A DNA stretch of 64,000 bases from Vicinamibacterales bacterium (GCA_035699745.1 DASSPH010000099.1:129841-193840); one strand, 5' to 3'; counted from the first letter of the stretch, positions 2,873 to 43,710 are shown. Translations and numbers: made by a program. The notes: a model not told the origin generated them from the letters alone.

Positions 2873-2873
2873 G

Positions 2874-3446: not shown

Positions 3447-3462
3447 GGGAGGAACGACGATT

Positions 3463-19935: not shown

Positions 19936-20396
19936 CTGCTTCGCGTCCGGCCCGGCTCGTCGTTATCGCGTGGGTCCTTACCGGGATCGCCCTCGGGCTC
20001 GGCACCTATACATTCGCCTACGCGAAGGGGTATTCGTACCTGACCAACGATCCCGCGGCGTGCGCCAACTGCCATGTCATGCGCGACCACTACGCCGCCT
20101 GGACGCGCTCGAGCCACCGCGCCGTCGCCGTCTGCAACGACTGTCACACGCCGCCAGGCGTCGTCGGGAAGTACACGACCAAGGCGCGCAACGGTTTCTG
20201 GCACTCGTTCTATTTCACGACGGGGCGGTATCCCGATCCGCTGCGGATCACGCCGCGCAACCACGAGGTGGCCGAGATCGCCTGCCGCAAATGCCACAGC
20301 GAGCTGACCGCCTCGATTGATCCGGCACACATGGAGACAGGGCGCGGCGGCCTCTCCTGCACCAGGTGCCACAACGACGCAGGACACATCGAATGA
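19932..20396 (+). CDS. nrfH: NapC/NirT-family tetraheme cytochrome c, NrfH
   Basis: Start MTASRPARLVVIAWVLTGIALG (TM anchor). Four CxxCH motifs: CANCH, CNDCH, CRKCH, CTRCH. Start ATG overlaps the stop of the FG-GAP gene (ATGA). Confidence 0.85.
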   Translation: MTASRPARLVVIAWVLTGIALGLGTYTFAYAKGYSYLTNDPAACANCHVMRDHYAAWTRSSHRAVAVCNDCHTPPGVVGKYTTKARNGFWHSFYFTTGRYPDPLRITPRNHEVAEIACRKCHSELTASIDPAHMETGRGGLSCTRCHNDAGHIE

Positions 20397-21772
20397 AGCG
20401 CCCGATCCCAGCGCCGGTCCTCATTGCCGCGTTTGCCGCGATCGCCGCGATTGCGGTCACGGCGCTCCTGGTGAACATCTTCAGCCGGCAGCAGGAAGGG
20501 CGGAACCCTTTCTACCGCGTCGTCGAGCTCGACGACCAGACGGTTGATCCCGCGGTGTGGGGCAGGAACTTTCCGCTGCAGTACGACAGCTACCGCCGGA
20601 CGGTCGATCAGGTCCGGACGCGGTACGGCGGCAGCGAGGCGGTGCCGCGGGCGCCGACGCAGGCCGATCCGCGCAGCGTCGTCGCGCAGTCGCGCCTCGC
20701 CGAGGATCCGCGGCTGAAGACGATGTGGGCGGGATACGCGTTCGCGCGCGACTTCCGCGAGGAACGCGGGCACGCCTACATGCTCGAGGACCAGACCTTC
20801 ACCGAACGCCAGATCGCGTCGCAGCAGCCCGGCACCTGCATGCATTGCCACGCGTCGGTCTACGTGCCGTACAAGCAGCTCGGCGGCGGCGACCTGATCA
20901 AAGGGTTCGAGACGATGAACCGGATGACGTATCAGGAGGCGCGGACGAAGGTGACGCATCCGGTCGCGTGCATCGACTGCCACGATCCATCGACGATGCA
21001 GCTGCGCGTGACCCGGCCCGGGTTCCTCGAGGGGATTGCGAAGGTGAAGGCGGCGCAGGGGGCCGCCGGCTACGACGTCAACCGCGACGCCACGCGGCAG
21101 GAGATGCGCGCCTACGTCTGCGGCCAGTGCCACGTCGAGTACTACTTCAAGGGTCCGGAAAAGCGCTTGACCTATCCATGGGACAAGGGGCTCAAGGCCG
21201 ACGAGATCCTCGCCTACTACGAAGAGTCAGGCTTCAAGGACTGGACGCACGCCGAGAGCGGCGCGCCGGCGCTCAAGGCGCAGCACCCCGAGTTCGAGAT
21301 GTGGAACCAGGGCGTGCACGCGCGATCCGGCGTCGCCTGCGCGGACTGTCACATGCCGTATCAACGCGTAGGGGCGATGAAGGTCAGCGATCATCACGTG
21401 CGCAGTCCGCTGCTCAACATCAACCGCGCCTGCCAGACCTGCCACCGCTGGCCCGAAGAAGAGCTGAAGGCGCGCGTCGAAACGATTCAGGACCGGACGT
21501 TCCAGGTGCGCAACGTCGCGATGGACGCGCTCGTCGCGCTGATCGGCGACATCAAGGGCGCGCGGGCGGGCGGCGCTGCCGACGGCGCGCTGGAGCAGGC
21601 GCGGCGCCACCAGCGGCGCGCGCAGTTCCTGCTCGATTTCATCGAGGCCGAGAACTCGATGGGATTCCACGCCGACCAGGAAGCGATGCGGATCCTGGCG
21701 CTGTCGCTCGACGAGACGCGCCGCGGCCAGCTCGCGCTGCCGGGGCGATCGTCCGGGGGCGGCACTCGCTGA
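20393..21772 (+). CDS. nrfA: Cytochrome c nitrite reductase, pentaheme subunit NrfA
   Basis: Start MKRPIPAPVLIAAF overlapping the nrfH stop (ATGA). Five heme motifs CMHCH, CIDCH, CGQCH, CADCH, CQTCH. Heme 1 is CxxCH, not the classical CxxCK. Confidence 0.9.
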   Translation: MKRPIPAPVLIAAFAAIAAIAVTALLVNIFSRQQEGRNPFYRVVELDDQTVDPAVWGRNFPLQYDSYRRTVDQVRTRYGGSEAVPRAPTQADPRSVVAQSRLAEDPRLKTMWAGYAFARDFREERGHAYMLEDQTFTERQIASQQPGTCMHCHASVYVPYKQLGGGDLIKGFETMNRMTYQEARTKVTHPVACIDCHDPSTMQLRVTRPGFLEGIAKVKAAQGAAGYDVNRDATRQEMRAYVCGQCHVEYYFKGPEKRLTYPWDKGLKADEILAYYEESGFKDWTHAESGAPALKAQHPEFEMWNQGVHARSGVACADCHMPYQRVGAMKVSDHHVRSPLLNINRACQTCHRWPEEELKARVETIQDRTFQVRNVAMDALVALIGDIKGARAGGAADGALEQARRHQRRAQFLLDFIEAENSMGFHADQEAMRILALSLDETRRGQLALPGRSSGGGTR

Positions 21773-22391: not shown

Positions 22392-23612
22392 TCACCTCTG
22401 ATCCGGACCGGCGCCGTTCCCCTGCTGGGCGAATACGTCCGCGATCTTCAGGGCAATCGTGTGCGTGTCCGCGAACGACGTGTTCGACAGGACGGCGACG
22501 ACAATGCCGTATTCCGGGAACGTCACCAGCGAAGACACGCGACCGCCGCGCAATGCTCCGTCGTGGCCGACGGTGCGCGTTCCCTTGCCCGCGGCCGTGG
22601 CGGTTTCGAGGTCCCAGCCAAGTCCGTACCCCGTCTCTTCTCCGGAAGACAGCCGCTGTGACGCCTGGAGCATCTGTACCGTCGCGGGCTTCAGCAGCTT
22701 GCCGCCGTTGACGGCCAGCGCGAAGCGCACCAGATCCGACGGGGTCGACAGGAACGCGCCGGCGCCTGCGGAGCAGGACACGTCGAGCGGCTCCGGCTCC
22801 TGCGGCCCATACCGCGGGTCGGCGCCGAACCTCGGGAAATAGTAGGTCGCCAGATCGGGCACGGCATCGGTGGTTGAATCGGCCGCCGTGTCGCGCATGC
22901 CGAGCGGCTCGAATACCTGCTTCTGCACGACGGCGAAGAACGGCTCCTTCGCCGCGGCCTCGATCGCAGCGCTCACCAGGACCCAGCCGTAGCTCGAGTG
23001 CTGGTAGCGCGCGCCAGGCTCGAACAGCAGCGGCCGGTCGGCGAACCGCTTGAACGCGTCCGCGGTGCGCTCGCAATGCTCCACGGTGGGCTCCTCGTCG
23101 CCCGCGTCGTTCCGGATCCCGGCGGTGTGCGCCATCAGATGCCGCAGCGTGACCGGCCATTGCTTGTCCGGGAACGATGGCACGTAGGTCTGGATCTCCG
23201 ACTCGAGATGGAGCTGCTCCCTCTCGAGCAGCAGACCGGCGGCCGCGGACGTCAGCGCGATCGACGCGCTCCCGATCTTGAAGCGCATGGCCGGTCCGAC
23301 CGGCACCTGGTTCTCGACGTCCGCCCAGCCGAGCCCCTCTGCCCAGACCAGCTCGCCGGCGGCGCCGACGGCGACGGACAGCCCGGGGAGATTCTGCGCC
23401 ACCAGGCCGGCGCGGGCGATCTGCCGCGCCTGGGCGGCAGCCGCCGACCACCTCGCCGGCGGCGACGAGAGCATCCGCGACGGCACGTGGCCCGGATCCT
23501 GATGGATCGGCCTCGCGGTCGCATTGACGTAGAGGAACAGGCCGACGACGAACGCGGCGATCAGCATCGGCGGGACGGCGAGCCAGACGAGCCACTTACG
23601 ATGGTTCAGCAC
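22392..23612 (-). CDS. Beta-lactamase-fold serine hydrolase family protein with degenerate catalytic motifs
   Basis: 406 aa. N-terminal TM; class C beta-lactamase/esterase-like fold. The canonical SxxK, YxN and HTG motifs appear as SASI, HSS and HDG. Confidence 0.7.
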   Translation of the reverse strand: MLNHRKWLVWLAVPPMLIAAFVVGLFLYVNATARPIHQDPGHVPSRMLSSPPARWSAAAAQARQIARAGLVAQNLPGLSVAVGAAGELVWAEGLGWADVENQVPVGPAMRFKIGSASIALTSAAAGLLLEREQLHLESEIQTYVPSFPDKQWPVTLRHLMAHTAGIRNDAGDEEPTVEHCERTADAFKRFADRPLLFEPGARYQHSSYGWVLVSAAIEAAAKEPFFAVVQKQVFEPLGMRDTAADSTTDAVPDLATYYFPRFGADPRYGPQEPEPLDVSCSAGAGAFLSTPSDLVRFALAVNGGKLLKPATVQMLQASQRLSSGEETGYGLGWDLETATAAGKGTRTVGHDGALRGGRVSSLVTFPEYGIVVAVLSNTSFADTHTIALKIADVFAQQGNGAGPDQR

Positions 23613-23679
23613 GGCGCCAGCGTATCACGGCGACTTTGTCACACAAAGCTCTGCCGGTCGCGCGCCATCGAGCGCCCCG

Positions 23680-25041
23680 TCAAATCAGCCCCGCTCGCTT
23701 CACGGCATGGTAGCGGTTCACCAGCTCGACCCCCAGCCACTCCGGCTCGGCGTCTGCCATCAGGGCGTCGTTGGCGGCCAGCCGGTTGAACGCGTTCCGG
23801 CGCGCCTGCTCGTACAGATGCGCGGCGGCGATGTCGATCGGATCGGCGTGCTCGAACGGTTGCCGGATCATCTCGCCGACGACGCGCTCGCGGAGGCTGG
23901 CGAGCAGCACGAGGTGCCGGTGCCGCAGCAGGCGAAGCGCCGCCGCCAGCTCCGTGCTGTCCTCGTCGCGGAAGTTGGTGATGACGATCACCAGGGCACG
24001 CTTGCGCTGCCGCAGCAGCAGCGCGCGCGCCGCGGCCAGGTAGTCCGAATGCGTCGCGGTCGGCTGCACGTCGTACATCTGGCCCATCAACGCGTTCAAT
24101 GCGTGCTTTCCCTTCCGCGGAGGAAACGAGCGCTCGCCGCCCGGCGGCGTCCCGAACGTCATCGCGCCGACCGCATCCCCCTGCCCGAGCGCCACGTACG
24201 AGAGCAGCATGACGGCGTTCAGCACCTGATCGAAGTGCGCGGTGCCGGCCGACGCCGTGCGATCGTCCGCGCGCATCCGCCGGCCGCAATCGACGAGCAG
24301 CATCACGCATTGATCGCGTTCGTCCTGGAACTCGCGCACGATCGGCTTGTTCGCCCGCAACGTCGCACGCCAGTCGATGTGGCGGACGTCGTCGCCGAGC
24401 CGGTACTCCGACAGCTGCTTGAAGTCGGTGCCCTGCCCGCGCAGCTGATAGGTCTTGACGCCGATCTCCTGCAGCCGCCGGTCCCCGGCCAGCCAGGCAT
24501 AGCGCGCCACCTGCGCGAAGTCGGGAAACACGCGGCGGCGTTCGGCCGGACCGAGGCGCTGCTGCACCTCCCAGAACCCCCACCGCGAACGGATCCGCAC
24601 GTCGGCCGGCGCGAATGTCACGTCGCCGCGCATCGTCGGCGTCACGGTATAGGTGACGTCGACACGCTTGCCGCCCTGGATGGCCAGCCGCCGGATCGGC
24701 AGCCCCTCGACCGCAAGCGTCGCGTCGGCGTGGTCGTGGAGGTCGCCGCGCCATGTCGCCGTGCCCTGCGCCTCGATGGCCACGCGGATCGGGCGCTTGA
24801 CGCCGATGGCGAAGGCGGCGGGAAGGTCGCGGGTCAGCATGGGGGACGCCGCGCGCCAGCCTCGAAGCGTCAGCACGAGGTCCACGGCGGCGACCGCCGC
24901 GAGCAAGGCGGCCGCGGCGAGCGTGACCCGGCTCACCGCCGGCGCGGTCGCGCCGGCCACCAGCGCGAGCAGCGCGGTCGCGGCAAGCGCGGCCAGGCCG
25001 CTCAGCATCGTTCGCCCCGGAAGCGCACGCGTCATGGCCAT
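23680..25041 (-). CDS. DUF58 domain protein with N-terminal TM region
   Basis: 453 aa. RxxDWxxTLR region (DDVRHIDWRATLRANKPIVREFQDE) and VWA-like body (CVMLLVDCGRRM). Confidence 0.8.
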   Translation of the reverse strand: MAMTRALPGRTMLSGLAALAATALLALVAGATAPAVSRVTLAAAALLAAVAAVDLVLTLRGWRAASPMLTRDLPAAFAIGVKRPIRVAIEAQGTATWRGDLHDHADATLAVEGLPIRRLAIQGGKRVDVTYTVTPTMRGDVTFAPADVRIRSRWGFWEVQQRLGPAERRRVFPDFAQVARYAWLAGDRRLQEIGVKTYQLRGQGTDFKQLSEYRLGDDVRHIDWRATLRANKPIVREFQDERDQCVMLLVDCGRRMRADDRTASAGTAHFDQVLNAVMLLSYVALGQGDAVGAMTFGTPPGGERSFPPRKGKHALNALMGQMYDVQPTATHSDYLAAARALLLRQRKRALVIVITNFRDEDSTELAAALRLLRHRHLVLLASLRERVVGEMIRQPFEHADPIDIAAAHLYEQARRNAFNRLAANDALMADAEPEWLGVELVNRYHAVKRAGLI

Positions 25042-25053
25042 GCTCCGCCCGGT

Positions 25054-26017
<964 letters not shown>

Positions 26018-26031
<14 letters not shown>

Positions 26032-27184
26032 GCTGACCCTTCGTGTGAATGGCGAGAAGTTCGCGCCGCGCCGCTTCGAGCAGGACGATGGCGCGCCGCA
26101 GGTCCCCGGCCGCGGATCGGCCGGAGTGGTGAACGGCCGCCGCGAGCGCGCCGGCATCGAAGCCGGTCGCACGCGCGAGGGCGGCGAGCCGCTGGTCGCC
26201 GGACAGAACGGCGTAGCCGCTGATGCGGCGGCCGGCGGCCTGCTCGAGAGCGCGCAGCGATGCGGCGTGCAGCGACTCGCCGCCGCCGTGCTGCAGCGCG
26301 AACCGCCCGGTGCCGCGGATCTGATCGGCCAGCGACCGCCGCGCGGCGGCGGACGGCGCGGCGAGCGGCCCGAAGCGGCTCGCGCCTCGCCACAGCAGCG
26401 CCGCGAGCAGCGTGAGCCCGAGTGCGACGACCGGCGCTCCATGGCGCCAGATCAGCGCCGGCAGCGAGGGAAACTCCTCCTCCGACAGGAAGCGCACCTC
26501 GTCGCCGCGCCGCAGCTCGGTCGCGGCGGCGAACAGGCGGCCGTGCTCCCCTTCGAACAACGTGCGCTCCACGAACGGCGCCGCGTTGATCACGGTGACG
26601 CGTCCGCGGCCGATCCGCATCCGCATCGCCTGGATTCCACGGTTGTCGCGGAGCGCCCACTCGGGGACCCGCGTGCTCTCCAGCCACGTCATGCCGAGAT
26701 CGCACAGCCACAGGACGTTCGGACTCGCCGCCGGCCGGCCGCTCACTTCTTCAGTGACCTTGCGGCACGCGGGATCCGGCTCGCCCTTCCAGTTCTTCCA
26801 GTCGGGATAACGGCGTACGATCCCGGTCCAGTTCTCGAACGCCTCGTCGGCTTCGACCAGACGGTTGTCGACGACGAGACGGCCGCCCGATTCCACCCAC
26901 CGCTCGAGGGCGGCGCGGCGGTTGCGCGTCAGGCTCCAGTGCCACGTCGAGATCACGAGCACGGCGTTCGAGTCCGGCACCACGAGCATGCGATCCCATG
27001 CCGTCCTGGCGCCGAGCCGCTCCGCGAACCGCTGCGTCGCATAGAACGGATTGACGAGCGCCTCCCCCTTCGGCGGCATCGGGACCTTCACTTCTTCCCA
27101 GTACGTGTGATTCGCCACCCAGCCTGCCAGGAGCGCCAGCGGAACGGCCGCCAGGAGCGCGGTGACGATGCGCCTGCGCGTCAT
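26018..27184 (-). CDS. DUF4350-like protein (N-terminal TM, periplasmic domain, C-terminal TM)
   Basis: 388 aa. Architecture and operon position match DUF4350 proteins found upstream of MoxR/DUF58. Overlaps the moxR start by 14 nt. Confidence 0.6.
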
Positions 27185-27960
27185 GCCGCCTCCGGCGCCG
27201 GCGCCGCACCGGCGGAAACCGGACGCAGCGCGGACGCGAACTCGTCGCAGAGCGCATGCACGGTCGTCGTGTCGATCGGCTCGCGTCCGTAGCCGAAGCG
27301 CTGCCAGACGCGCACCAGACGGGACAAGTACTCGGCTCTGTCGGGCAGCCGCGCGGCCGCGAGCGCGAGGCAGTCTCCTTCGGTGCTGGACTCCCGGATC
27401 GGCACGCCGTGAACGTGTGCGAGCCGCGAGAGCATGCCGCGATACAGCAGCGCGAGCGCCGCCCGCTGCTCGCCGCGATCCCAGAGCTGCCGCGCGGCCG
27501 CCCCGACATCGTCAGGCAGCGTCTCGGGCCGGATGTCCAGGTCGCGCACATGCGTGGGCACGACGAACGCGCCGTCCGCGGGATCGGCGAGCCGCGTGCG
27601 GGCGACGCGCGTGAGATAGACGACCAGCAGTCCGGCCAGGCCCGCGGCCCCCACCCACACCAGCACCCGGGCCGATTCGCCCACCCAGGCGAGCAGTCCC
27701 GAGATCCACGACAACCAGCCGGGCGCACGCCACGGCTTCGACGGAGACGAGTCCCTCCAGCGAAGCGCCTTGATCGTCCGCTCCGTCGCCAGGTTGGGAT
27801 CCGTTTTGACCGCCTCGATCGCGCGCGGGATTTCGGCGGGGTCGGGAGCCGGCGCGGATGCCGCGGACGCCGGCTGCGCGGCGAGTGCCGCAAGCGGCGG
27901 CGCGCTCAGCGTCGCCACCAGCGCCGCGAGCCGGACCCCTCGCTCAAGCCGCGAAGGCAC
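27181..27960 (-). CDS. DUF4129-like protein
   Basis: 259 aa. Signal/TM, then a domain with ...SSTEGDCLALAA.... Overlaps the next gene by 4 nt. Confidence 0.55.
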   Translation of the reverse strand: MPSRLERGVRLAALVATLSAPPLAALAAQPASAASAPAPDPAEIPRAIEAVKTDPNLATERTIKALRWRDSSPSKPWRAPGWLSWISGLLAWVGESARVLVWVGAAGLAGLLVVYLTRVARTRLADPADGAFVVPTHVRDLDIRPETLPDDVGAAARQLWDRGEQRAALALLYRGMLSRLAHVHGVPIRESSTEGDCLALAAARLPDRAEYLSRLVRVWQRFGYGREPIDTTTVHALCDEFASALRPVSAGAAPAPEAA

Positions 27961-28678
27961 GCCGGAACTCCTGCTCGATATCCCAGGCCTCGAGCTCGGC
28001 GCGCCGGTTCAAGTACATCCCGAAGCCGGCGGCGACGTAGAAGGGCTCCACGAACAGCACTGCGAGCGCGTAGCCGATCGGGATGGACAGCATCAGCCAC
28101 GCCGGGGCCTCCCCCATCACCAGCGCCTCGAACTGCGGCGCGCGCCCTGCCGGCGCGAACCAGAACACGAGCGAGCAGGCGGCCAGCCACAGCGCGATCT
28201 CCGCGAGGCTGAATACCGACGTGATCATCAACGCCGGCCCGGCAATGCGGTTGCGGATCACGCGCATGCGCTGCCGCGCGCCGAGGATGGAGAACCCTTC
28301 GAGCTGGTAGATTGGCTCGGTCAGCGTGCGCCACGGGGACAGCCGGCGGGCGGTCCACGTGAACGCGCACTGCCGCCACCAGACGGCGCGCTGCGCGCCC
28401 CAGACGTCCACGGGCCTGGTCGGCTGGCCGAACGCCGCCCGTGACAGGACGAAGAGGACCGTGCGATCGAGCCAGGGCTTCGCCCACCAGATGACGAAGC
28501 CCGGCAGCCACGCCGCGATCTCGTACGACGCCAGCCCGAGGACGATCACGGGCAGCGCGACCATGGCGTAGCAGCCATAGACCGATCGCGCGGCGCTCTG
28601 GCACAGGCGGACGCCGAGGTCCGCCCCTTCGAGCGCGGTGCGCGGACGCAGCCGGACCGCCAGCGTGTCAAGCTGCAC
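27944..28678 (-). CDS. Integral membrane protein, unknown function
   Basis: Multiple TM helices (MVALPVIVLGLASYEIAAWLPGFVIWW, ALMITSVFSLAEIALWLAACSLVFWF, WLMLSIPIGYALAVLFV). Start uncertain: GTG 28678, or ATG 28564. Confidence 0.5.
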   Translation of the reverse strand: MQLDTLAVRLRPRTALEGADLGVRLCQSAARSVYGCYAMVALPVIVLGLASYEIAAWLPGFVIWWAKPWLDRTVLFVLSRAAFGQPTRPVDVWGAQRAVWWRQCAFTWTARRLSPWRTLTEPIYQLEGFSILGARQRMRVIRNRIAGPALMITSVFSLAEIALWLAACSLVFWFAPAGRAPQFEALVMGEAPAWLMLSIPIGYALAVLFVEPFYVAAGFGMYLNRRAELEAWDIEQEFRRAFAA

Positions 28679-29651
28679 GGCGCCCCTGCCGGATGAAATA
28701 GGTGAACACCGCGATCCAGCACACCGCCGCGACGCTGTACTTGAGCGAGGGCGCCAGCCACTGCGCCGACGACCAGAACGCCTCGATCGCCGCGGCAATC
28801 AGCAGCATCATGGCGACGCCGTAGAGCACGACGGCGGAATCGCGCGTCGCGCCGACCAGGGCCTGCCCCCGCGTCAATCGTCCCGGCGCGAGGAGGGCAT
28901 GGCCGATCCGCAGGCCCGCGGCGCCCGACAGCACGATGGCGGTCAACTCGAACGCCGAATGCGTCGCGACGAACGAATAGAACGTCGGCGCCATGCCGCG
29001 CTCGGTGAGATACCCGGCAATCGCGCCGCCGAACGCGCCGTTGTAGACCAGGAAGAACACGCTTCCGAGCCCTGCGAACAGGCCGCCGGCAAAGCACTGG
29101 AACGCCACGCCGATGTTGTTCCGGACATAGAACGCGAACATCACCCAGTCGGTCGTCGCCTCGCGTACGCGGCCGATTGCTTCGGCGGACGGCGAATACA
29201 TCCGATCGAAGGACGACGCAGTGTCGGCGCTGACGACCGAAAGGATCAGCTCCGGCTGGCGGTACACCACCAGACCGACGGCGATGGTCGGCAGCAGGAA
29301 GAGCGCCGCGGCGGCGGCGACGTAGCGGGCCTGCGCTCTGACGGCGCGCGGGAAGTCCGCCAGCAGCATCGCCTTCACACGCGCGGCACCGAACTCGTGC
29401 TGACGGTAGATCACCTGGTGGCCGTCTGCGGTCAGCCGCTCGAGGCGATCGACCAGGTAGGCCGGATACGATCGGGCCCGCGCCAGCGCGAGCTGCTCGC
29501 ACGCCCGCCGATAGAGCGCCGCCACGCGGTCGCCCGGCACCTCCTCGCGCGCGCCGGATCGCCGGCCGGTGCGGCCGAGCACGCGGTCCAGCAGCGCTTC
29601 GAGCTCCGTCCACTCGGCTTCGTAGAGCGCCTCGAACTGCAGCGGAGTCAT
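28668..29651 (-). CDS. SpoIIM-like (stage II sporulation protein M / DUF95) membrane protein
   Basis: True start MTPLQFEALYEAEWTELEALLD at 29651; the track's upstream 171 codons are junk. The N-terminal cytoplasmic helix followed by several TM helices is typical of DUF95. ATGA overlap with the RDD gene. Confidence 0.65.
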   Translation of the reverse strand: MTPLQFEALYEAEWTELEALLDRVLGRTGRRSGAREEVPGDRVAALYRRACEQLALARARSYPAYLVDRLERLTADGHQVIYRQHEFGAARVKAMLLADFPRAVRAQARYVAAAAALFLLPTIAVGLVVYRQPELILSVVSADTASSFDRMYSPSAEAIGRVREATTDWVMFAFYVRNNIGVAFQCFAGGLFAGLGSVFFLVYNGAFGGAIAGYLTERGMAPTFYSFVATHSAFELTAIVLSGAAGLRIGHALLAPGRLTRGQALVGATRDSAVVLYGVAMMLLIAAAIEAFWSSAQWLAPSLKYSVAAVCWIAVFTYFIRQGRRAA

Positions 29652-30391
29652 GCGCGCCGTCCCAGCGACCAGTGCGCGACGCCGAGCACGCGCCGCGTCA
29701 CGTCCGGTCCGCGGCGCCCTGCGTCCCCCGACACTACCGCCGCGAGCGCCGCCAGCTCGTCGAGACGCTCGGACGTCAGCCGTGGTGCCCGCGCCGCGAG
29801 CGCGATGAGCGCGGCCTGATCGTCGGCGCTCAGCGGCACGACCGGCACGACCGGTTCGACCGACCCCAGCGCCATCCGCGGCGCTCCGCGCGGCTGATGG
29901 ATCACCAGCGTCCCGGCGGCAATGTCGCCGAGGCGCTGGCAATCCCGCCGCAGCAGCATGCTCACCACAGCAAATCCGTAGCCGAACGGCAGGAAGTCCG
30001 CCACGCGCAGCAGATTCCGGGTGAGCGCCGCCGCCGCGGTCACCGGCAGGCCGTTCTCCATCACGACCCTGAGCGCGAACATGCGCTTGCCTGGCGTCGC
30101 GCCGCCCGGCATCAGCTCGAACACGACCGGATAGAACCACTCGAGCGCGAAGATGATGATCAGCCACAGCGCGAGGCCGAGCTGCCCGAAGAGGGCGAGG
30201 CCGATCGCCGCGGCGTAGATGATGGCCAGCCGGATCACGCCGTCGACCGCAAAGGCGTAGAACCGGACGCTGAGGCCGGCCGGGCGCAGCTCCAGCAGGA
30301 TGCCTTCCGGAGTCTCCGTGGTGACGACGGTGTCGAGGACCCCGCCGCGGGCCGGCAGCCCCTCAGGCTTTGATGACGAGGGTGTCGGCAA
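29648..30391 (-). CDS. RDD family membrane protein
   Basis: 247 aa. RFYAFAVDGVIRLAIIYA...TPGKRMFALRVV is the RDD signature. Confidence 0.75.
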   Translation of the reverse strand: MPTPSSSKPEGLPARGGVLDTVVTTETPEGILLELRPAGLSVRFYAFAVDGVIRLAIIYAAAIGLALFGQLGLALWLIIIFALEWFYPVVFELMPGGATPGKRMFALRVVMENGLPVTAAAALTRNLLRVADFLPFGYGFAVVSMLLRRDCQRLGDIAAGTLVIHQPRGAPRMALGSVEPVVPVVPLSADDQAALIALAARAPRLTSERLDELAALAAVVSGDAGRRGPDVTRRVLGVAHWSLGRRA

Positions 30392-30869
30392 GGTGATCGT
30401 GGATGCAGCGCCGCGACTCCCCGAAGATGAAGAGCGCGTCGATGATTCCGTACATCGGGACCACGGCGAGGATCATGTTGACCACGTTGCGCAGCCAGAT
30501 GACGCGCGACAGCGACACCGGCGACCCGTCGGACCGGACCATCTTGATCCCGCAGGCCTTCTTTCCGATCGACTGGCCGTCGGCCTTCAGACACTTGATG
30601 GTGAGCCACAGCCACGCGGCGAAGCCCACCAGCGCCAGCGCCAGGGCGATGCCCATGCCCGTGTTGCCGGCGTCGTCACTGCCCTGGGCCTGCGCGGAGC
30701 CGCCGATGAACGCACCGGCAAAGAGCGGCAGATAGACCATCACCCCGACGATCAGCCCGTCGAGCAGGGAAGCGCCGAGCCGGGTGGAGCGATCGGCCAG
30801 CAGGATGCCGGCTGCCGGATCCGCGACATCGAGGACGACTGCCTGGGGCGGAGCGTACGGATTTGTCAT
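30363..30869 (-). CDS. RDD family membrane protein (second, shorter)
   Basis: True start MTNPYAPPQAVVLDVADPAAG at 30869. RLGASLLDGLIVGVM...SIGKKACGIKMV is an RDD signature. Confidence 0.7.
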   Translation of the reverse strand: MTNPYAPPQAVVLDVADPAAGILLADRSTRLGASLLDGLIVGVMVYLPLFAGAFIGGSAQAQGSDDAGNTGMGIALALALVGFAAWLWLTIKCLKADGQSIGKKACGIKMVRSDGSPVSLSRVIWLRNVVNMILAVVPMYGIIDALFIFGESRRCIHDHLADTLVIKA

Positions 30870-31027
30870 CGAATCACGATTCCTGTGAGTACGGCGGCGC
30901 GCGCCTGGCGATTCTGCATCGGCATTGGCGCCTTCGCCACCACTTTTATCGGATGATGGCGCCGGCTGTGCACGCCCCGTTCCGCGGTTCGCTGGGTCGA
31001 TCGTGCACACCCGGCGCTCGGAGCGGG

Positions 31028-32974
31028 TCAGCGCGGCGGCGCGTCTCCGTTGCGACGCTGGAACTCGCGCAGGAAGCCCATCACACCCGCCGACAGCGCG
31101 TCACCGCTCCCGGTCACCATGATGTCGGGCACGAAGCGGCTCGGGCTCTTGACCAGCTCGGCCACCACGTTGACCGCGGAGGTCGCTTCCGGCCCGATCG
31201 CCTGCGACTGCGCCGCGAACCCCTTCGCGCGGGCCAGGCCGATCGCTTCGATCTCCGCGCCTCGCGCGCGGCCGGTCTGCTCGATGAACGCCGCCTCTCC
31301 TTCCCCTTCCGCTCTGCGTGCCCGGGCGCGGTTCTCCTTGATGATGATCTCCACCTCCGACCCGGCGAGATCCCGCTGCCGGTCGGCCAGGCCCCCCTGC
31401 TTCTCCATGTCGATGCGGGTGAGCTGCGCTTCGCGCTGCGCCAGGAAGGTGGCTTTCTCCTGGTTGGCGATCTCGCGCTGCGTCAGCACCCGGACGATCT
31501 CCTCCGGCAGCACCACGTCCTGGATGTACACGCCGCGCGTCTCGACGTTGTACTTGCGGATCTGGTCGGCGATGTAGTTCTGCGCCTTACTCTGCAGCGC
31601 GGCCCGGTTCTCGATGAACTGGACCGCCGCCATCCCCTGCAGCGTGTCGCGGAAATAGTTGCCGACCACCGCCTGCAGCACCTCGTTCACCAGGTTCTGC
31701 ATCGTCCCCACCATCGAGATCACTTTCGGCGCGAGCTTGTCCGACACGTGAATCTGCACCTGCAGGTCGATGTTGAAGACGAAGCCTTCCTTCGACTTGG
31801 CGACGATCTGTTTCAACTGCTTGTCCAGGTTGTGCGCCTGCGACGCCGCTTCGGCCCAGTTCAGCGTGAGAATCGCCGTCGGCACCATTTCCGCCTGGTA
31901 GATCCGCGGGTTGATCGCGTACTTGCCGGTGCGGAGCGGTTCTTCCCAGATGCCGCGATGGCCGGGCCGCACGATCGAGCCGAACTTGAACTCGTCGCCG
32001 GAGGTGTCTTCCGTCGGCTGTCCGACCGCGGCCTTGATCACCGCGACCTCGCCCTGCCTCACCACCAGCATCGGCGCGGTCTGCACGCGGACGAGATACG
32101 GATTCAGCGCGTACGATCCGTACAGCAGCGGATCGTGCTGCAGGCCGATGCGCCCGCCGCTGTCGAGAAACTTCTGGTAGTCCTGGTAGTTGTTGTGCCG
32201 CTCGTTCTGGTTGCCGATCAGCACGTCCGCAATCTCGGCGTCGCTCCGCCCCTCGACCTCCATACGCCGCACGTCGTCGAACCGCCCTATCCTGCAGGCG
32301 ATGTCGCCCGACGGCAGCGGCTCGCCGTCCAGCGTCTCGACGATGCCGACGACGTCGACGACCCTGTCGGTGCCCTGCTCGTGCAGGCGCGCGGGCGCGA
32401 TGACTTTCAAGGTCAGTTGATCGGGTTCGAGGCCGAAGAGCGCCGGTCCGAAGCGCTCGCGGTACTCCGCGTTGACCGGCAGCCCGAAGCTGCGGCTGCG
32501 GGTGAGCACGAGGAACGCGACCGGGTGGAGCGGCAGAATCGCTCCGGGAGGCAGCACCGGGCGCTGCACGCCCTGCTGCCCTCCCTCGGCGACGAAGGTG
32601 CGCACGTCGGTGAACTGGCCGAACACCGGCTTGTAGACGCCGGATTTCCAGCCGGTCGGCAGCGGCGCGCCGACCTGCGCGATCACGAGGCCGATTTCGC
32701 CCGTGGGGATCTGCACCCACGGATGTTTCTCGACGCGGTTCACCGGCCAGAGACGCACGGCGACGCCGGGCATCAGCAGATCCGCCTGGTATCCGGCTTC
32801 GTTCTGAAACGCGACCGGACCGCCTTCCGCGCGCCGGGGCCCCCAGCGGCGGATCACGAGCCCGACCTGGTTGGGGCCGATGCGGTGCACGGAGAGGACG
32901 GCGACGACGGCGAGGAGTACAGCCAGCGGGACGGCGATCGCGATCGCCGCCTGAACGGGCGAGCCAGCAAACAC
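31028..32974 (-). CDS. SPFH/band-7 (flotillin-like) membrane protein
   Basis: 648 aa. N-terminal TM; extended SPFH domain and coiled-coil/Ala-Glu-rich C-terminus (ANQEKATFLAQREAQLTRIDMEKQ...ARARRAEGEGEAAFIEQ). Confidence 0.8.
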   Translation of the reverse strand: MFAGSPVQAAIAIAVPLAVLLAVVAVLSVHRIGPNQVGLVIRRWGPRRAEGGPVAFQNEAGYQADLLMPGVAVRLWPVNRVEKHPWVQIPTGEIGLVIAQVGAPLPTGWKSGVYKPVFGQFTDVRTFVAEGGQQGVQRPVLPPGAILPLHPVAFLVLTRSRSFGLPVNAEYRERFGPALFGLEPDQLTLKVIAPARLHEQGTDRVVDVVGIVETLDGEPLPSGDIACRIGRFDDVRRMEVEGRSDAEIADVLIGNQNERHNNYQDYQKFLDSGGRIGLQHDPLLYGSYALNPYLVRVQTAPMLVVRQGEVAVIKAAVGQPTEDTSGDEFKFGSIVRPGHRGIWEEPLRTGKYAINPRIYQAEMVPTAILTLNWAEAASQAHNLDKQLKQIVAKSKEGFVFNIDLQVQIHVSDKLAPKVISMVGTMQNLVNEVLQAVVGNYFRDTLQGMAAVQFIENRAALQSKAQNYIADQIRKYNVETRGVYIQDVVLPEEIVRVLTQREIANQEKATFLAQREAQLTRIDMEKQGGLADRQRDLAGSEVEIIIKENRARARRAEGEGEAAFIEQTGRARGAEIEAIGLARAKGFAAQSQAIGPEATSAVNVVAELVKSPSRFVPDIMVTGSGDALSAGVMGFLREFQRRNGDAPPR

Positions 32975-33141
32975 GGCAAGCCTCCAAGTGCCGGCGGGGT
33001 TAGCTGACGGGCTCGAGGTTGGAGTCCTCTACCCACCTTCGCTCGCCTTGCGAGCTACGGTGGGATGCGCCCCGTGGCGCGGATATCGCGCCGGTGGTTC
33101 CCCCGCGACGCCGGGTCTGGCCGGCGTCTTAGGCTGATTCC
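32975..33141 (-). promoter_or_regulatory. Structured 5' leader of the flotillin-to-DUF58 operon
   Basis: About 165 nt between the predicted -10 element and the ATG. On the minus strand it contains GGCGCG-ATATC-CGCGCC and a nested hairpin CCCACC-GTA-GCTCGC-AAG-GCGAGC-GAA-GGTGGG. Confidence 0.4.
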
Positions 33142-33169
33142 ACTATACGCCCGCGCCCGGGGGAGTCAA
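33142..33169 (-). promoter_or_regulatory. Sigma70-like promoter (TTGACT-N16-TATAGT) for the flotillin operon
   Basis: Minus-strand TTGACTcccccgggcgcgggcgTATAGT (forward-strand ACTATA at 33142-33147, AGTCAA at 33164-33169). Confidence 0.5.
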
Positions 33170-33201
33170 ATCGTGAGCCGACCGGCGCGATCGAGTCACG
33201 A

Positions 33202-33627
33202 TCAACCGGCGAGCTTCACCCAGCTTGCGGTCGTTCGGTTGTAGCAGTGCAGGCCGCAGCCCCTGGCGCACCAGTGGTAGTAGTCGTATTCCAGGCCGTC
33301 GATGCGCCCGCGCTCGATCCACTCGAGGGCAGTTCCGCAGGCCGGACACGCGCGCCGACGATGATCCGCGGCCGCCGCGTTGATGGCGTCGGCACGCGCG
33401 ATCAAACGCGACGAGCGCTCGAGGAGGCCCTCGGCGCCCCGGCGGACGCTCTCGGCGCGCTCGCGCAACCCGCGCGAGCGGAGGACGGTCCACAGGTTCT
33501 GGAGGAGGATGTCCGGCGCGACCCTTTCTTCCAGACAGAGATCCGCTTCCCTCGCCGTCCGCGACGCCACGCGGTCGTCGCCGATCAGCACCACCGGGAT
33601 GTCCCGGGTATCGGGCCGCGACTTCAA
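33202..33627 (-). CDS. Zinc-ribbon protein with degenerate receiver-like N-terminal region
   Basis: 141 aa, TTG start. C-terminal CPACG...HWCARGCGLHCY cysteine cluster. The N-terminus DIPVVLIGDDRV...ADLCLEERVAPDILLQNLWTVLRS resembles beta4-alpha5 of a response-regulator receiver. A 50-aa ORF in another frame (33624..33776) encodes MSTT...IVLLADDDFPRL, a receiver beta1-like start. Confidence 0.4.
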   Translation of the reverse strand: MKSRPDTRDIPVVLIGDDRVASRTAREADLCLEERVAPDILLQNLWTVLRSRGLRERAESVRRGAEGLLERSSRLIARADAINAAAADHRRRACPACGTALEWIERGRIDGLEYDYYHWCARGCGLHCYNRTTASWVKLAG

Positions 33628-37198: not shown

Positions 37199-39817
37199 AT
37201 GGCGCGTCGCCACGACCCTTCGGATGACGAGTTTCGGGAAGAAGTCGAGTCGCACGTCGCGCTCGAGACCGACCGCCTGCTGGCCGAGGGCGTCAGCCCA
37301 GAGGAAGCCGCAATGGCGGCCCGGCGAAAGTTCGGGAACGTCACCCGTGTCCGGGAGAACTTCTACGAATCGCGGCGCGTGATGTGGTTCGAGGACCTGC
37401 GACATGACACGCGCTTTGCAGTGCGCTCCTTGCAACGCAGCCCCGCGTTTACAGCCGTGGCCCTTTTGACTCTGGCAATAGGCCTGGGCGCAAATACGGC
37501 GATCTTCAGCGTCGTCAATGCGGTTCTGCTGCGCCCACTTCCGTATAACGCGCCTGACCAGTTGGTCCTGCTGGAGCATCCGCCGCTTGGCGGGAGCCCC
37601 GCCTGGTTAAGAGACGCCTGGCACGCGCGATCGCGCACGCTGACGGAGTTCGCCGGCATCGAGCCGTCCGCGCCAGCGACACTCGTCGCCGGAATTCAGC
37701 CGATGCCTGTCAACGCTGCGCACGCCACGGCGAACTTCTTCGCACTGCTGGGCATCAAGGCTTCGCTCGGAAGGATCTTCGCCGAGACAGATACCCAGCC
37801 TGGGGCGCCGGCGGTCGCGGTGCTCAGCCACAGCTTCTGGATTCGGCAGTTTGATGCCAGTGCCGACACCATCGGCAAGAGCATCACGCTGACGGATGTA
37901 ACCTTGACGGGCGAGCCGCGCGTTATCATCGGCGTGCTCCCAGCCGATTTCCGCTTCCCCGTTGCGGACCCGCCTGGTGAAGCACCGATATTCGCGAGGA
38001 TGCAACCAGATGTCATCGTTCTCTCCCGGGATGACGCGTTTCAGCAGGTGATTGGAAGGCTCGCTCCCGGAACGACAGCGGCGAAGGCCTCAACCGAGTT
38101 GTCCGGCATCTTTGCCCAAGAAGCGTCCGCACGTTTTTCGGCGCGTTTCGTTGAGCGCACGCGTGTCATCGCAATGCCTCTTCAGGATCGCCTCGTCGGC
38201 AATGCCCGGTATCGGCTGCTGCTGCTCATGGGTGCCGTGGGCTGTGTTCTCCTCGTGGTGTGCGCCAACATCGCCAGCCTTCTGTTGGCGCGCATCACCG
38301 GACGCGGACCCGAGTTTGCCGTCCGCGCGGCGCTCGGCGCGCGGACCGGCCGCCTTGTACGCATGATCCTGACAGAGAACGTCCTCCTCGCCATTTTCGG
38401 CGGCGCAGTTGCACTGTTCCTCGCGTACTGGAGCAATGACGTGCTCCGCTCGCTGCTCGCAGGTCGTGTCTCCTACGTCGAAACCGTCGCACTTGACTGG
38501 CGGGTGTTGGCCTTCAATCTCGCCGTCGCCGCGGCTATGGGTGTGGTCTGCGGGCTCGCATCTCTCGCGACGATTTGGTCGACCCGGCACGCAGGGAGCA
38601 CGACCGCAGCTGGTCGATCCATCACCCGACGCCCGCGCCTAGGTTTGACCCTTGTGGCCGGGGAAGTCGCCGTCGTGTTCGTCTTAGTCTTGATGGCGGC
38701 GCTGTTGTCTCAGACGCTCTGGAACCTTCGTCACACCAGGCGAGGTTTTGACGCGAGCGGACTGCTGACCGCCGGGGTGATGCCGGGAGCGTCCGGCACC
38801 ATTCCCGAGTTGCAGAACCTGACCGTGACGTTCTTCGGCACGATCGTCGATCGCATCGCTCGAGAGCCGAATGTGGAATCGGTAGCGGCAGCGTCAACCG
38901 TGCCGTTCAGCGGTCCGGCTATGGGGATGTCCGGCGTGTCGGTCGTGGGCCGCCAGGCACCCGACAAGACCCCGCCAGTCTCTGTCGCGGCCGTCACACC
39001 GGGCTATTTCGCGACGATGCGGATCCGGTTGATAGGTGGCCGTGATTTCAACAGGGGGGATGTTCCGTCGCGAGACCGCGTCGCCATTGTCAACGAGGCT
39101 TTCTTGCGAGTGATCGCGTCGGCCCTGACACCTGGCACAGAGATCCAGTTTGGCCGCTCTCGCCTGACAGTAATCGGCATCGTCGAGAACACACCGGACA
39201 CGTCGCTCCGGCGACCGGCTCGGCCGTTTGTGTATCTCCCAATGGCTCAGACCATCGGCAGCCAATTCGCTTTCGGCCGGTTGATGATCCTAGTGCGCGC
39301 GCGTAGTGGCGACCCGGCCGCGCTGATCCCCACCCTGCGCAACACCGTCTGGAGCCTCGGACACGACATCGTGATAGATGACGTCAGCACGATGGACGAA
39401 CGGGTCGGCGCGGCAGTGCGCACGGAGCGGGACAGCGCGCTGTTGTTTGGAGTGCTAGGCGCCATCGCACTAGTCGTTGCCGTCGCCGGTGTGTACGGTG
39501 TCGTCGCGTACTCGGTTTCGCAGCGCACTCGGGAGATCGGGATTCGAACGGCTATCGGTGCGACTCATCGTCAGGTGGTGGCCGGCATCGTCCGAGAGTC
39601 GGTTTGGCCCGTCGCAATCGGGATAGGAATCGGGGCTGCCACCGCGGTCGTCGTCGTGCGCGCGATCGCGGGACTTCTTTTTGAAATTAGGCCCACGGAT
39701 CCGCCGACCTACGTCGGGACGGCCGTCGCTCTGACTCTTACGGCCTTGGCGGCAGCGTGGATTCCCGCACGGCGGGCTGCTGGGGTCGATCCGGTCACGG
39801 CACTTCGCGCTGAATAG
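37199..39817 (+). CDS. ABC transporter permease, FtsX-like duplicated (MacB-like) family
   Basis: 872 aa. Two FtsX-type 4-TM modules, each with a periplasmic domain; C-terminal IPARRAAGVDPVTALRAE. Starts 2 nt after the padR stop. Confidence 0.9.
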   Translation: MARRHDPSDDEFREEVESHVALETDRLLAEGVSPEEAAMAARRKFGNVTRVRENFYESRRVMWFEDLRHDTRFAVRSLQRSPAFTAVALLTLAIGLGANTAIFSVVNAVLLRPLPYNAPDQLVLLEHPPLGGSPAWLRDAWHARSRTLTEFAGIEPSAPATLVAGIQPMPVNAAHATANFFALLGIKASLGRIFAETDTQPGAPAVAVLSHSFWIRQFDASADTIGKSITLTDVTLTGEPRVIIGVLPADFRFPVADPPGEAPIFARMQPDVIVLSRDDAFQQVIGRLAPGTTAAKASTELSGIFAQEASARFSARFVERTRVIAMPLQDRLVGNARYRLLLLMGAVGCVLLVVCANIASLLLARITGRGPEFAVRAALGARTGRLVRMILTENVLLAIFGGAVALFLAYWSNDVLRSLLAGRVSYVETVALDWRVLAFNLAVAAAMGVVCGLASLATIWSTRHAGSTTAAGRSITRRPRLGLTLVAGEVAVVFVLVLMAALLSQTLWNLRHTRRGFDASGLLTAGVMPGASGTIPELQNLTVTFFGTIVDRIAREPNVESVAAASTVPFSGPAMGMSGVSVVGRQAPDKTPPVSVAAVTPGYFATMRIRLIGGRDFNRGDVPSRDRVAIVNEAFLRVIASALTPGTEIQFGRSRLTVIGIVENTPDTSLRRPARPFVYLPMAQTIGSQFAFGRLMILVRARSGDPAALIPTLRNTVWSLGHDIVIDDVSTMDERVGAAVRTERDSALLFGVLGAIALVVAVAGVYGVVAYSVSQRTREIGIRTAIGATHRQVVAGIVRESVWPVAIGIGIGAATAVVVVRAIAGLLFEIRPTDPPTYVGTAVALTLTALAAAWIPARRAAGVDPVTALRAE

Positions 39818-39859
39818 CCCGCGTGCCGATGGTTCGCCTCGGGACGTGAACCTCGGCCC

Positions 39860-39968
39860 TTGTAGACCCCCTCTGAAGCGACCTCAATTCTGAGTATACG
39901 CGACTGGGGTATATTGTTATTGTATATAATGCGGCGAGATGCGCTATATCAACTATCATAATATACCC
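39860..39968 (+). promoter_or_regulatory. AT-rich segment (about 30% GC) with TATA-like repeats upstream of the AbiEi-like gene; likely promoter/operator and island boundary
   Basis: ...ctcaattctgagtatacgcgactggggTATATTGTTATTGTATATAATGcggcgagatgcgcTATATCAACTATCATAATATAccc. Contains a perfect TATAAT (39924-39929). Contrasts sharply with the 70% GC flanks. Confidence 0.45.
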
Positions 39969-39970
39969 AC

Positions 39971-40789
39971 ATGGCTGCAGACGATCGGAAGGTGGTCGCC
40001 GCGCTCGCGAGAGCCGCAAAAGGCGGTGTGGTCTCTCTACCCGCCGCACTTCACGCAATTGACGGCCCGCCCGCAAAGGCGGCGCTTCGACTTCGCCGGC
40101 TCATCCGCCACGGTTGGATCGAACGGCTGCGGCGGGGCCTTTACTTAGTCAAGCCGCTCAGCGCGGCTCCCGACCAAGCGGCTATCCCAGAGGACCCGTG
40201 GGTGCTGGCTCGCGAGGTCTTCTCCCCCTGTTACATCGGCGGATGGAGCGCAGCCGAACACTGGGAGCTGACCGAACAGATTTTCCGATCGACGTTGGTT
40301 GTGACCGCTGTGCCTGCTCGAAAGACCGAGCTGCGTATTGGGGGCTACGACTTCCGCGTGTTCCGCGTTCACCGAACTCGTCTCGCTGCCGGAGTCGTCA
40401 ACGTCTGGCGAGGGCCCGAACGGGTCCAGGTCTCTGGACTCGAGCGGACAATCGCGGACGGTCTCCGAGATCCGGAGCTTGTCGGCGGAGGTCGCCATCT
40501 GGTGCAGCTTCTCCGCGCATACGGAGAGCATAAGGACCGCAATTTCGTCCGCTTGCTTGATGTCGCCCGACATACTGCTTCCGGCGCGGCTTGGAAGCGG
40601 CTGGGGTTTCTAAGCGAACGCCTCTGGCCCGCAGAAGTCAAGGTCGTCACCGCCGCCGGCCGCCATCTCACGGCAGGCTACGTCCGTCTCGACCCTGGCA
40701 ATAGACACCATGGAAAGCTCTCCAAGCGGTGGCGGCTCTGGATCAACGTGCCGGTTTCTGACCTGACATCCGAGCCGGCCGCTTCATGA
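39971..40789 (+). CDS. AbiEi-like antitoxin / transcriptional regulator (type IV TA)
   Basis: 272 aa. N-terminal wHTH-like region; C-terminal domain typical of AbiEi/COG5340-like proteins. Stop overlaps the start of the following nucleotidyltransferase gene (ATGA). Confidence 0.7.
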   Translation: MAADDRKVVAALARAAKGGVVSLPAALHAIDGPPAKAALRLRRLIRHGWIERLRRGLYLVKPLSAAPDQAAIPEDPWVLAREVFSPCYIGGWSAAEHWELTEQIFRSTLVVTAVPARKTELRIGGYDFRVFRVHRTRLAAGVVNVWRGPERVQVSGLERTIADGLRDPELVGGGRHLVQLLRAYGEHKDRNFVRLLDVARHTASGAAWKRLGFLSERLWPAEVKVVTAAGRHLTAGYVRLDPGNRHHGKLSKRWRLWINVPVSDLTSEPAAS

Positions 40790-43208: not shown

Positions 43209-43247
43209 TCCTATTCAGCACTGATCGTACCTCGAAGCGTCCTCTTC

Positions 43248-43280
43248 GCAATCGCTCACCAAAATCCCTCACGCTTGACA
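43248..43280 (+). promoter_or_regulatory. Conserved direct-repeat motif plus TTGACA upstream of padR (copy 2)
   Basis: GCAATCGCTCACCAAAATCCCTCACGC immediately followed by TTGACA (43275-43280), 61 nt before the ATG at 43342. Confidence 0.5.
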
Positions 43281-43341
43281 GCGCCGCGCCGGACGGAGGA
43301 AACTTTCCGCTCCCATAGTTCGTCTATGCAAAGAGCGGCTG

Positions 43342-43686: not shown

Positions 43687-43710
43687 TGGCCTGATTCTCC
43701 GGAGGGTAAG

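Follow-up and report, generated by a model that had tools for sequence, protein, structure and literature searches.

Gene organization of the locus

A 64,000-nucleotide stretch of a Vicinamibacterales genome (DASSPH010000099.1:129841-193840 of assembly GCA_035699745.1), hereafter the window, carries nine same-direction genes on the minus strand between positions 23680 and 32974, which we designate g1 to g9 from the 5' end of that strand. The proteins of g1 and g5 each have a 100% identical counterpart in a metagenome-assembled genome of Vicinamibacterales (Acidobacteriota). The first gene encodes an SPFH-domain membrane protein, and the other eight form a compact block that includes a MoxR-type ATPase and a DUF58 protein. 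The original prediction joined all nine in a single operon headed by a flotillin. We consider it probable that the locus instead comprises two independent units, an SPFH gene with a riboswitch and an eight-gene operon for a MoxR-driven membrane complex, which are neighbors only in this genome.

The reality of the genes was assessed from frame-specific G+C content at the third codon position (GC3) and Pfam matches of the minus-strand open reading frames (ORFs) in the interval 23680-32974. All nine were supported, with coding-type GC3 values of 0.81-0.93, and their Pfam identities agree with those first assigned, weakly so for DUF4350; NCBIfam offered no informative name for eight of the nine proteins. 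The SPFH/Band_7 gene g1 (31028-32974) encodes a 648-residue membrane protein of YqiK/flotillin-like type. It is followed by two RDD-family genes, g2 (30363-30869; a membrane protein of 168 residues) and g3 (29648-30391; 247 residues), and by g4 (28668-29651), which encodes a SpoIIM-like membrane protein of 327 residues. Next come g5 (27944-28678), a 244-residue polytopic membrane protein without a Pfam family, g6 (27181-27960), a 259-residue DUF4129 protein, and g7 (26018-27184), a 388-residue DUF4350-like protein. The block ends with g8 (25054-26031), a 325-residue MoxR-type AAA+ ATPase with AAA_3 and AAA_lid_2 domains, and g9 (23680-25041), a DUF58 protein of 453 residues.

Two start codons were corrected. 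The g2 gene begins at the ATG at 30869 and not at the GTG at 31010, with an N-terminal MTNPYAPP that is kept in four orthologs of 166-178 residues, and g5 begins at the GTG at 28678, giving a length that matches more than 100 homologs and a relative in Catenovulum. The sole canonical start of g3 is the TTG at 30391; an internal GTG start was rejected, as the codon reads GTC. With these starts, g2 and g3 overlap by 29 nucleotides, g3 and g4 share the ATGA at 29648-29651, g5 overlaps g4 by 11 and g6 by 17 nucleotides, g6 and g7 overlap by four (27181-27184), and g7 and g8 overlap by 14 (26018-26031). The ATGA, 4-nucleotide and 14-nucleotide junctions are exactly as first described. A gap of 12 nucleotides separates g8 from g9, the remaining junctions of g2-g9 being overlaps of 4-29 nucleotides. 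The expectation that no junction in the interval exceeds 40 nucleotides therefore holds within g2-g9 and fails between g1 and g2, which lie 158 nucleotides apart with the corrected g2 start. An antisense ORF opposite g2 (30397-30735, plus strand, 112 codons, GC3 0.94) was rejected as a shadow ORF of the kind typical of high-GC genomes, its wobble phase being that of g2.

The SPFH gene and the eight-gene block are not linked in other genomes

Linkage was examined from both sides. On the SPFH side, we collected 80 loci with SPFH homologs 56-90% identical, from contigs representing one genome per species in Acidobacteriota, Actinomycetota, Armatimonadota, Chloroflexota, Patescibacteria and other phyla. 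By tblastn with g2-g9, in which a MoxR gene would be hard to overlook, none of the 80 loci gave a match within 10 kilobases. A blastn alignment of the window with the closest SPFH loci (L001-L004) was limited to the SPFH gene and its leader, and clustering of the neighboring ORFs around the 80 loci disclosed no conserved partner, the best cluster being common to eight of them. On the cluster side, a metagenome scan with g2 orthologs yielded 80 loci, and at least 249 relatives were confirmed. An SPFH match was absent from all 37 metagenomic cluster loci whose upstream sequence reaches 700 nucleotides or more, and eight further cluster loci also lack an SPFH gene. Seen from either side, the linkage of flotillin and MoxR cluster on which the nine-gene operon was built is not conserved; the adjacency is limited to this one Vicinamibacterales genome, a one-genome accident, and g1 is an independent gene outside the conserved block.

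The block itself is conserved as a unit. Three of the cluster loci (L082, L083 and L086), with g5 homologs 68-74% identical, contain the complete colinear series RDD-RDD-SpoIIM-g5-DUF4129-DUF4350-MoxR-DUF58, and their upstream neighbors are mutually unrelated: an aminotransferase gene, a divergent PadR gene and a Trans_reg_C regulator gene. DNA homology of the window to L083 and L086 spans 30881 to 23684 and 30882 to 23682, respectively, which is exactly g2-g9. In every metagenomic locus of sufficient length the block is colinear up to the end of the sequence, and g3 directly follows g2 in 57 of 57 informative metagenomic loci, so that the second RDD gene noted in the original prediction is a real addition, conserved in this lineage. 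A related contig (L081:7777-11600) carries RDD-RDD-SpoIIM-g5 and a 293-residue gene without a Pfam family, followed by unrelated genes; its homology to the window ends at 27443, and the DUF4350-MoxR-DUF58 half is missing, through decay or misassembly.

The boundaries of the block are delineated by a close relative of the SPFH gene. In L085, the SPFH protein (P0002) is 90% identical at the protein level, and its gene is followed after 54 nucleotides by a beta-lactamase-family gene. This gene is the ortholog, at 75% nucleotide identity, of the one that flanks the block in the window, outside it, and marks the indel boundary (22392-23612, minus strand). Compared with L085, the window thus has the 7.3-kilobase block g2-g9 and a leader of about 158 nucleotides between two otherwise neighboring genes, and since the SPFH gene adjoins the beta-lactamase-like gene in L085, g2-g9 constitutes a discrete indel in the window. 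A palindrome and promoter-like motif (CTTTG...CAAAGT...TA..C.T) lies ahead of the beta-lactamase-like gene in both, at about 23613-23660 on the minus strand of the window and at L085:2030-2075. The palindrome, CTTTG-N-CAAAGT, and its -10-like element are probably the operator and promoter of that gene.

An exact presence/absence polymorphism of this kind, together with a block context that differs in every relative, could also be the trace of a recently acquired mobile island, the site next to the SPFH gene being an insertion hotspot. The borders speak otherwise, as they contain no integrase, transposase or tRNA gene and no direct or inverted repeats of nine or more nucleotides, only chance 8-mers. 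The G+C content of the block (0.71-0.72, in a window of about 69%) and its GC3 match the surrounding genome, and the cluster, with its confirmed relatives, is apparently vertically common in Vicinamibacteria-like soil bacteria. Because the borders are unmarked and the composition matches the genome, an ordinary rearrangement is likelier than a mobile island, which we regard as improbable.

Probable separate transcription of g1 and g2-g9

The intergenic region between g1 and g2 contains a stem-loop on the minus strand (30959-31017) that starts 10 nucleotides past the g1 stop codon. The 59-nucleotide element has a predicted folding energy of -40.2 kcal/mol (z = -3.66; none of 200 shuffles folds as stably), is not repeated within the window, and has a counterpart of comparable strength after the SPFH ortholog of L003. 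It may serve as a terminator lacking a U-tract or, alternatively, stabilize the 3' end. Directly after the hairpin, upstream of g2, is a promoter-like sequence, TGCACA-16-GATAAA (30945-30972, minus strand). Its -10-like core, CCGATAA(T), resembles a GCCGATA(AT) motif that we found by k-mer counting over 78 loci, where GCCGATA occurs in 25 of the 78 regions upstream of g2 orthologs against roughly one expected by a rough, uncomputed estimate, a count that is inflated by kinship. Alignment of the g2-upstream regions from four loci showed little conservation besides the start codon. The promoter and riboswitch of g1 described below, the hairpin, the 158-nucleotide gap and a promoter-like motif common to other cluster loci lead us to favor separate transcription of g1 and g2-g9, short of proof.

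These features bear on the idea that the nine genes are one operon in which the SPFH/flotillin protein scaffolds a membrane microdomain where MoxR services the RDD, SpoIIM, DUF4129 and DUF4350 proteins. In its favor, SPFH proteins are known to scaffold membrane complexes, the genes are adjacent on the same strand, no canonical U-tract terminator lies between g1 and g2, and transcripts from the riboswitch-controlled promoter could physically continue into the block. Set against this are the gap with its stable hairpin and promoter-like motif, the direct junction of the SPFH and beta-lactamase-like genes in L085, an SPFH family without any conserved neighbor, and the missing linkage in every SPFH locus and every informative cluster locus. 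We therefore judge a flotillin-organized microdomain serviced by MoxR to be very improbable, and the comparative data lend it no support.

A flotillin-like gene preceded by a c-di-AMP riboswitch

The g1 protein comprises an N-terminal transmembrane helix, a region of about 270 residues without a Pfam family, the SPFH domain and a C-terminal coiled coil. The SPFH domain is recognized by the Band_7 family at 66.9 bits (residues 304-517); in Pfam at E <= 0.01, nothing besides Band_7 and Band_7_1 matched, and no C-terminal flotillin domain was recognized. Residues 30-300 (window positions of about 32075-32885) form the region without a family, which is conserved across the SPFH loci. The family is unusually well conserved between phyla: members from Acidobacteriota, Actinomycetota, Armatimonadota, Chloroflexota and Patescibacteria are 56-62% identical to one another, and over 200 alignment columns are invariant. 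Some homologs carry the JGI name 'YqiK'. An AlphaFold model of low confidence (predicted local distance difference test score 58.7) predicts a long C-terminal coiled coil.

In overall architecture g1 resembles E. coli YqiK and B. subtilis FloT: all are anchored in the membrane near the N-terminus, carry an SPFH/Band_7 domain and end in a long coiled coil rich in Ala and Glu. The g1 protein differs from both by the extra conserved region of about 270 residues ahead of the SPFH domain, and in its surroundings. The flotillin genes of yqiJK and yuaF-floT adjoin an NfeD-type partner, whereas no NfeD-type gene was found by Pfam among the neighbors of g1, and g1 is preceded by a match to the cyclic di-AMP (c-di-AMP) riboswitch. 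Similarity to solved SPFH proteins is marginal: a sequence search of the PDB returned QmcA (E = 0.002) and prohibitin as the best matches, at E values of about 0.002-0.004, and no flotillin.

The riboswitch aptamer, Rfam RF00379 (the ydaO/yuaA leader), spans 32977-33145 on the minus strand and, at 54.6 bits, clears the gathering score of 38. The match extends over the full model (positions 1-134), with the hallmark conserved segments present. Directly upstream is a putative sigma-70-like promoter, TTGACT-16-TATAGT (33142-33169, minus strand), which agrees with the consensus at 10 of 12 positions and is the only minus-strand site of this type in 23400-33400. RF00379 also matched ahead of the SPFH orthologs in L002, L003, L004 and L027, the leaders scoring 49.6-65 bits. 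A covariance model that we built from five leader sequences and ran over 82 sources added L019 and L085, the latter truncated at its 5' end, bringing the leader to 7 of the 82. It occurs in all close SPFH relatives (77% identity or higher) for which upstream DNA is available, and was not found in the distant SPFH homologs tested.

A Shine-Dalgarno sequence, GGAGG, lies five nucleotides past the 3' strand of P1 and six nucleotides ahead of the GTG start of g1. As this leaves no room for a terminator between P1 and the GTG, control of g1 is most likely translational, and the leader is probably an OFF switch from which the SPFH protein would be made at low c-di-AMP. Known ydaO/yuaA targets are cell-wall hydrolases and transporters of K+, osmolytes or amino acids. 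The five Rfam-matched loci share with those regulons a full-model aptamer above the gathering score; they differ in that the riboswitch sits before an SPFH gene, with a minimal expression platform. Our literature search found no paper linking the ydaO or c-di-AMP riboswitch with SPFH genes.

The block is a variant of a six-gene core with a split DUF4129 subunit

Comparison with more distant bacteria places the block within a wider family of clusters. In the plasmid collection, the single relative of g5 is on a megaplasmid of Catenovulum adriaticum (pCadTS8_2), where the annotated gene order is RDD, stage II sporulation protein M, a 515-residue hypothetical protein, DUF4350, MoxR and DUF58. The 515-residue protein aligns with g5 over residues 1-235 (E = 4e-25) and with g6 over residues 303-505 (E = 4e-6). 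Identities to the Catenovulum proteins are 50% for MoxR, 40% for SpoIIM and 34% for DUF58; its single RDD protein is 50% identical to g3 and 31% identical to g2. Judged by these identities, g3 is the ortholog of the single RDD protein of the six-gene core, and g2, the first gene of the eight-gene block, is a divergent, lineage-specific RDD paralog.

Fused g5::DUF4129 homologs occur in Pseudomonas, Neptuniibacter, Marinobacterium, Arenimonas, Thiothrix, Burkholderiales and Myxococcota. At E <= 1e-30, a profile search recovered 2357 clusters (50% identity), of which the 150 best were all full-length fusions. The six-gene order is identical in Pseudomonas (L089), a metagenome-assembled genome (MAG) of Myxococcota, a MAG labeled Bacteroidota, and Catenovulum, and these loci also keep an overlap of about 11-14 nucleotides between SpoIIM and the next gene. 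The same six families stand in the same order in the window, on one strand and in overlapping or nearly abutting genes, with g2 added and the DUF4129 gene split. This bears out the earlier statement that a core of RDD, SpoIIM-like, DUF4129, DUF4350, MoxR and DUF58 genes recurs in bacteria without an assigned function, and shows it to be colinear across phyla.

The g5/g6 split is kept in L082, L083, L086 and those long metagenomic loci that extend to this point; because it is conserved in these acidobacterial loci, it is not a frameshift artifact. By sequence comparison, g5 and g6 are the N- and C-terminal halves of one core subunit that is fused in Proteobacteria and Myxococcota. The g5 protein, earlier taken for an extra polytopic membrane protein, is accordingly no extra but the N-terminal half of what is the core DUF4129 protein in other phyla. 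Pfam at E <= 10 returned nothing for g5 or for the N-terminal domain of the fused homolog, DUF3488 and EI24 included. The fusion strongly hints that the two parts interact physically, and it offers a handle for work in Pseudomonas.

Proteins of the block and a possible MoxR-driven membrane complex

Topologies were predicted from hydropathy and charge bias (the positive-inside rule). The g4 protein is predicted to have a cytoplasmic N-terminal domain of about 107 residues, DUF8413 in newer Pfam, before its SpoIIM helices. For g6 the prediction is a signal or anchor, a short periplasmic stretch, a transmembrane helix and a cytoplasmic DUF4129 domain, which in the model resembles a HEPN-like four-helix bundle. 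The DUF4350 match of g7 is weak, at 20.2 bits under a cut-off of 30.4; positional orthologs of g7 do score as DUF4350, and g7 itself matches the Catenovulum DUF4350 gene at E = 1e-6. By prediction, g7 is anchored at its N-terminus, places a domain of about 220 residues in the periplasm, and returns through a transmembrane helix to a basic tail of some 119 residues in the cytoplasm. The g9 protein matches DUF58 at 107 bits and is predicted to have an N-terminal two-helix membrane hairpin and a cytoplasmic von Willebrand factor A (vWA)-like domain; a DUF58 gene adjacent to moxR and in the same direction is kept in all complete loci. Its metal ion-dependent adhesion site (MIDAS) is not intact, reading D-C/S-G-R/K-R-M in the window and seven orthologs where DxSxS is expected, and the PDB sequence search found no solved DUF58 relative.

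The MoxR protein g8, predicted to be soluble, matches AAA_3 at 207.5 bits and AAA_lid_2 at 73.3 bits, has intact Walker A (GVPGLGKT) and Walker B (LLADEINR) motifs, and finds PDB entry 2r44 at E = 2e-68. It also matches the Pfam family bpMoxR at 34.6 bits against a cut-off of 27. MoxR-vWA pairs occur in biological conflict systems (PMC12067865), and the block could on this ground be a conflict or anti-phage system of the MoxR-vWA kind, as in the ternary systems of MoxR, vWA and beta-propeller proteins. The bpMoxR match, however, lies under the far stronger match to AAA_3; Pfam identified no beta-propeller, effector or conflict-type partner in g2-g9; PADLOC returned no system match and only two weak local matches; and the genes keep one strict order across phyla, in chromosomal surroundings that vary, with partners that are all housekeeping-type membrane proteins. 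We accordingly give a conflict system hardly any credence.

We propose the following model for the two units. Unit A would be a single SPFH gene with its own sigma-70-like promoter and a c-di-AMP riboswitch abutting the ribosome-binding site. Unit B would be g2-g9, a translationally coupled eight-gene operon and a variant of the six-gene core. Its six integral membrane proteins may assemble into one inner-membrane complex, with a periplasmic face formed mainly by the GldG/flavodoxin-like DUF4350 domain and a cytoplasmic face formed by the DUF4129 bundle, the DUF4350 tail, the SpoIIM N-terminal domain and the membrane-tethered vWA-like domain of DUF58. A cytoplasmic MoxR hexamer could dock through DUF58 to the DUF4129 and tail domains and spend ATP to assemble, remodel or gate the complex. 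The output would lie at the cell envelope, in transport, secretion or remodeling of membrane or wall, and not in a flotillin microdomain.

Several observations weigh against this model. That the eight proteins form one complex acted on by MoxR is inferred from gene arrangement and sequence. The predicted fold of g5 is CysZ-like, a resemblance at the level of the fold only; neither g5 nor 75 family members gave an EI24/CysZ Pfam match at E <= 1, and a Foldseek search of the PDB with the model of the fused protein gave no significant whole-chain match. The degenerate MIDAS of DUF58 implies that classical metal-dependent docking of a vWA domain may not apply. As for the separation of the two units, the roles given to the hairpin and the g2 promoter are guesses from sequence, and as g1 and g2 run in the same direction with no U-tract terminator between them, some read-through into g2-g9 may occur.

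Relation to known systems

A literature search found no functional study of the RDD-SpoIIM-DUF4129-DUF4350-MoxR-DUF58 cluster, and g2-g9 is a lineage-specific variant of this known, uncharacterized MoxR-DUF58 cluster. The six-gene cluster of Pseudomonas, Catenovulum and Myxococcota has the same families, order and tight coupling; the window differs in that g5::DUF4129 is split into two overlapping genes and a divergent second RDD gene heads the operon. In mycobacteria, a comparable set comprises the RDD protein Rv3695, the SpoIIM protein Rv3694c, the DUF58 protein Rv3693, the MoxR protein Rv3692, the DUF4350 protein Rv3691 and the membrane protein Rv3689, all of them co-repressed 70- to 220-fold (PMC8191103). 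The likeness of Rv3689-Rv3695 and MAB_0386c-0392c to the block is drawn from the annotation in that paper's table rather than from sequence comparison. Two of these proteins, the SpoIIM-like Rv3694c and the RDD protein Rv3695, co-purify with the divisome-associated Rv0954 (PMC8093794).

In archaea, DUF4350 (arCOG01314), MoxR and vWA proteins were predicted to form a secretion or membrane-remodeling system by Makarova, Galperin and Koonin in 2015, and bacterial SpoIIM homologs were noted to adjoin vWA proteins and COG0714 ATPases (PMC5898192). Like that system, the block combines a COG0714 MoxR and a vWA-type protein with a DUF4350 protein that is anchored in the membrane and has a large flavodoxin/GldG-like domain outside the cytoplasm. 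In the archaeal case there are secreted partners of Ig-like and S-layer type, and the vWA protein is extracellular, whereas the partners in the window are RDD, SpoIIM-like and CysZ-fold/DUF4129 proteins, and the vWA-like domain of DUF58 is predicted to be cytoplasmic.

Adjacent MoxR (AAA_3) and DUF58 genes are also found in operons of the MRP subfamily, including Bacteroides Bat, mycobacterial moxR1-DUF58-vWA and bifidobacterial PFNA. The block differs from these operons in having no BatA/BatB-type VWA, TPR, transglutaminase or FN3 protein and no kinase. Snider and Houry reportedly described the MoxR-DUF58 pair in 2006 as a chaperone/adaptor module for the maturation of other proteins. A review likewise treats the pair as a chaperone/adaptor module that matures other proteins (PMC12067865).

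Elsewhere in the window, a separate Bat-operon-like set on the minus strand (849-3446) is unrelated to g2-g9. It consists of a MoxR AAA_3 gene (849-1886), a VWA_2/VWA gene (1883-2872) and a TPR-like gene (2874-3446), with a 648-residue protein without a Pfam family upstream (3443-5389) as a possible extension. A cytochrome c552 gene (NrfA-type nitrite reductase; Pfam E = 1.7e-136) occupies 20321-21772 on the plus strand, and the region 38001-44000, with a G+C content of 0.61-0.63 against about 0.69 elsewhere, may be foreign or otherwise atypical.

Implications

The conserved unit at this locus is now delimited as g2-g9. Since its adjacency to the SPFH gene is an accident of one genome, the flotillin-microdomain idea is not worth pursuing from here. 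We can only tentatively entertain a broader pair of proposals, which taken together we find rather doubtful. One is that the core, from Acidobacteriota to Pseudomonas and Mycobacterium, might be an unrecognized AAA+-powered inner-membrane machine, in which CysZ-fold, RDD and SpoIIM-like proteins make up a channel-like or remodeling core that has the GldG-like DUF4350 domain on its periplasmic side and is assembled or gated by MoxR by way of a membrane-tethered, MIDAS-less DUF58 and the cytoplasmic DUF4129 bundle, and that it might represent a new class of envelope transport or remodeling system tied to cell-wall growth or division. The other, separate proposal is that the Vicinamibacterales SPFH family might be the first flotillin-like protein directly under a c-di-AMP riboswitch.

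As the cluster is present in Mycobacterium tuberculosis (Rv3689-Rv3695) and Pseudomonas, any mechanistic lead would have reach; the window adds a variant rather than a new principle. The most interesting by-product of the analysis is the c-di-AMP riboswitch ahead of the SPFH gene, which would connect membrane scaffolding proteins with the control of osmotic and envelope homeostasis by a second messenger.

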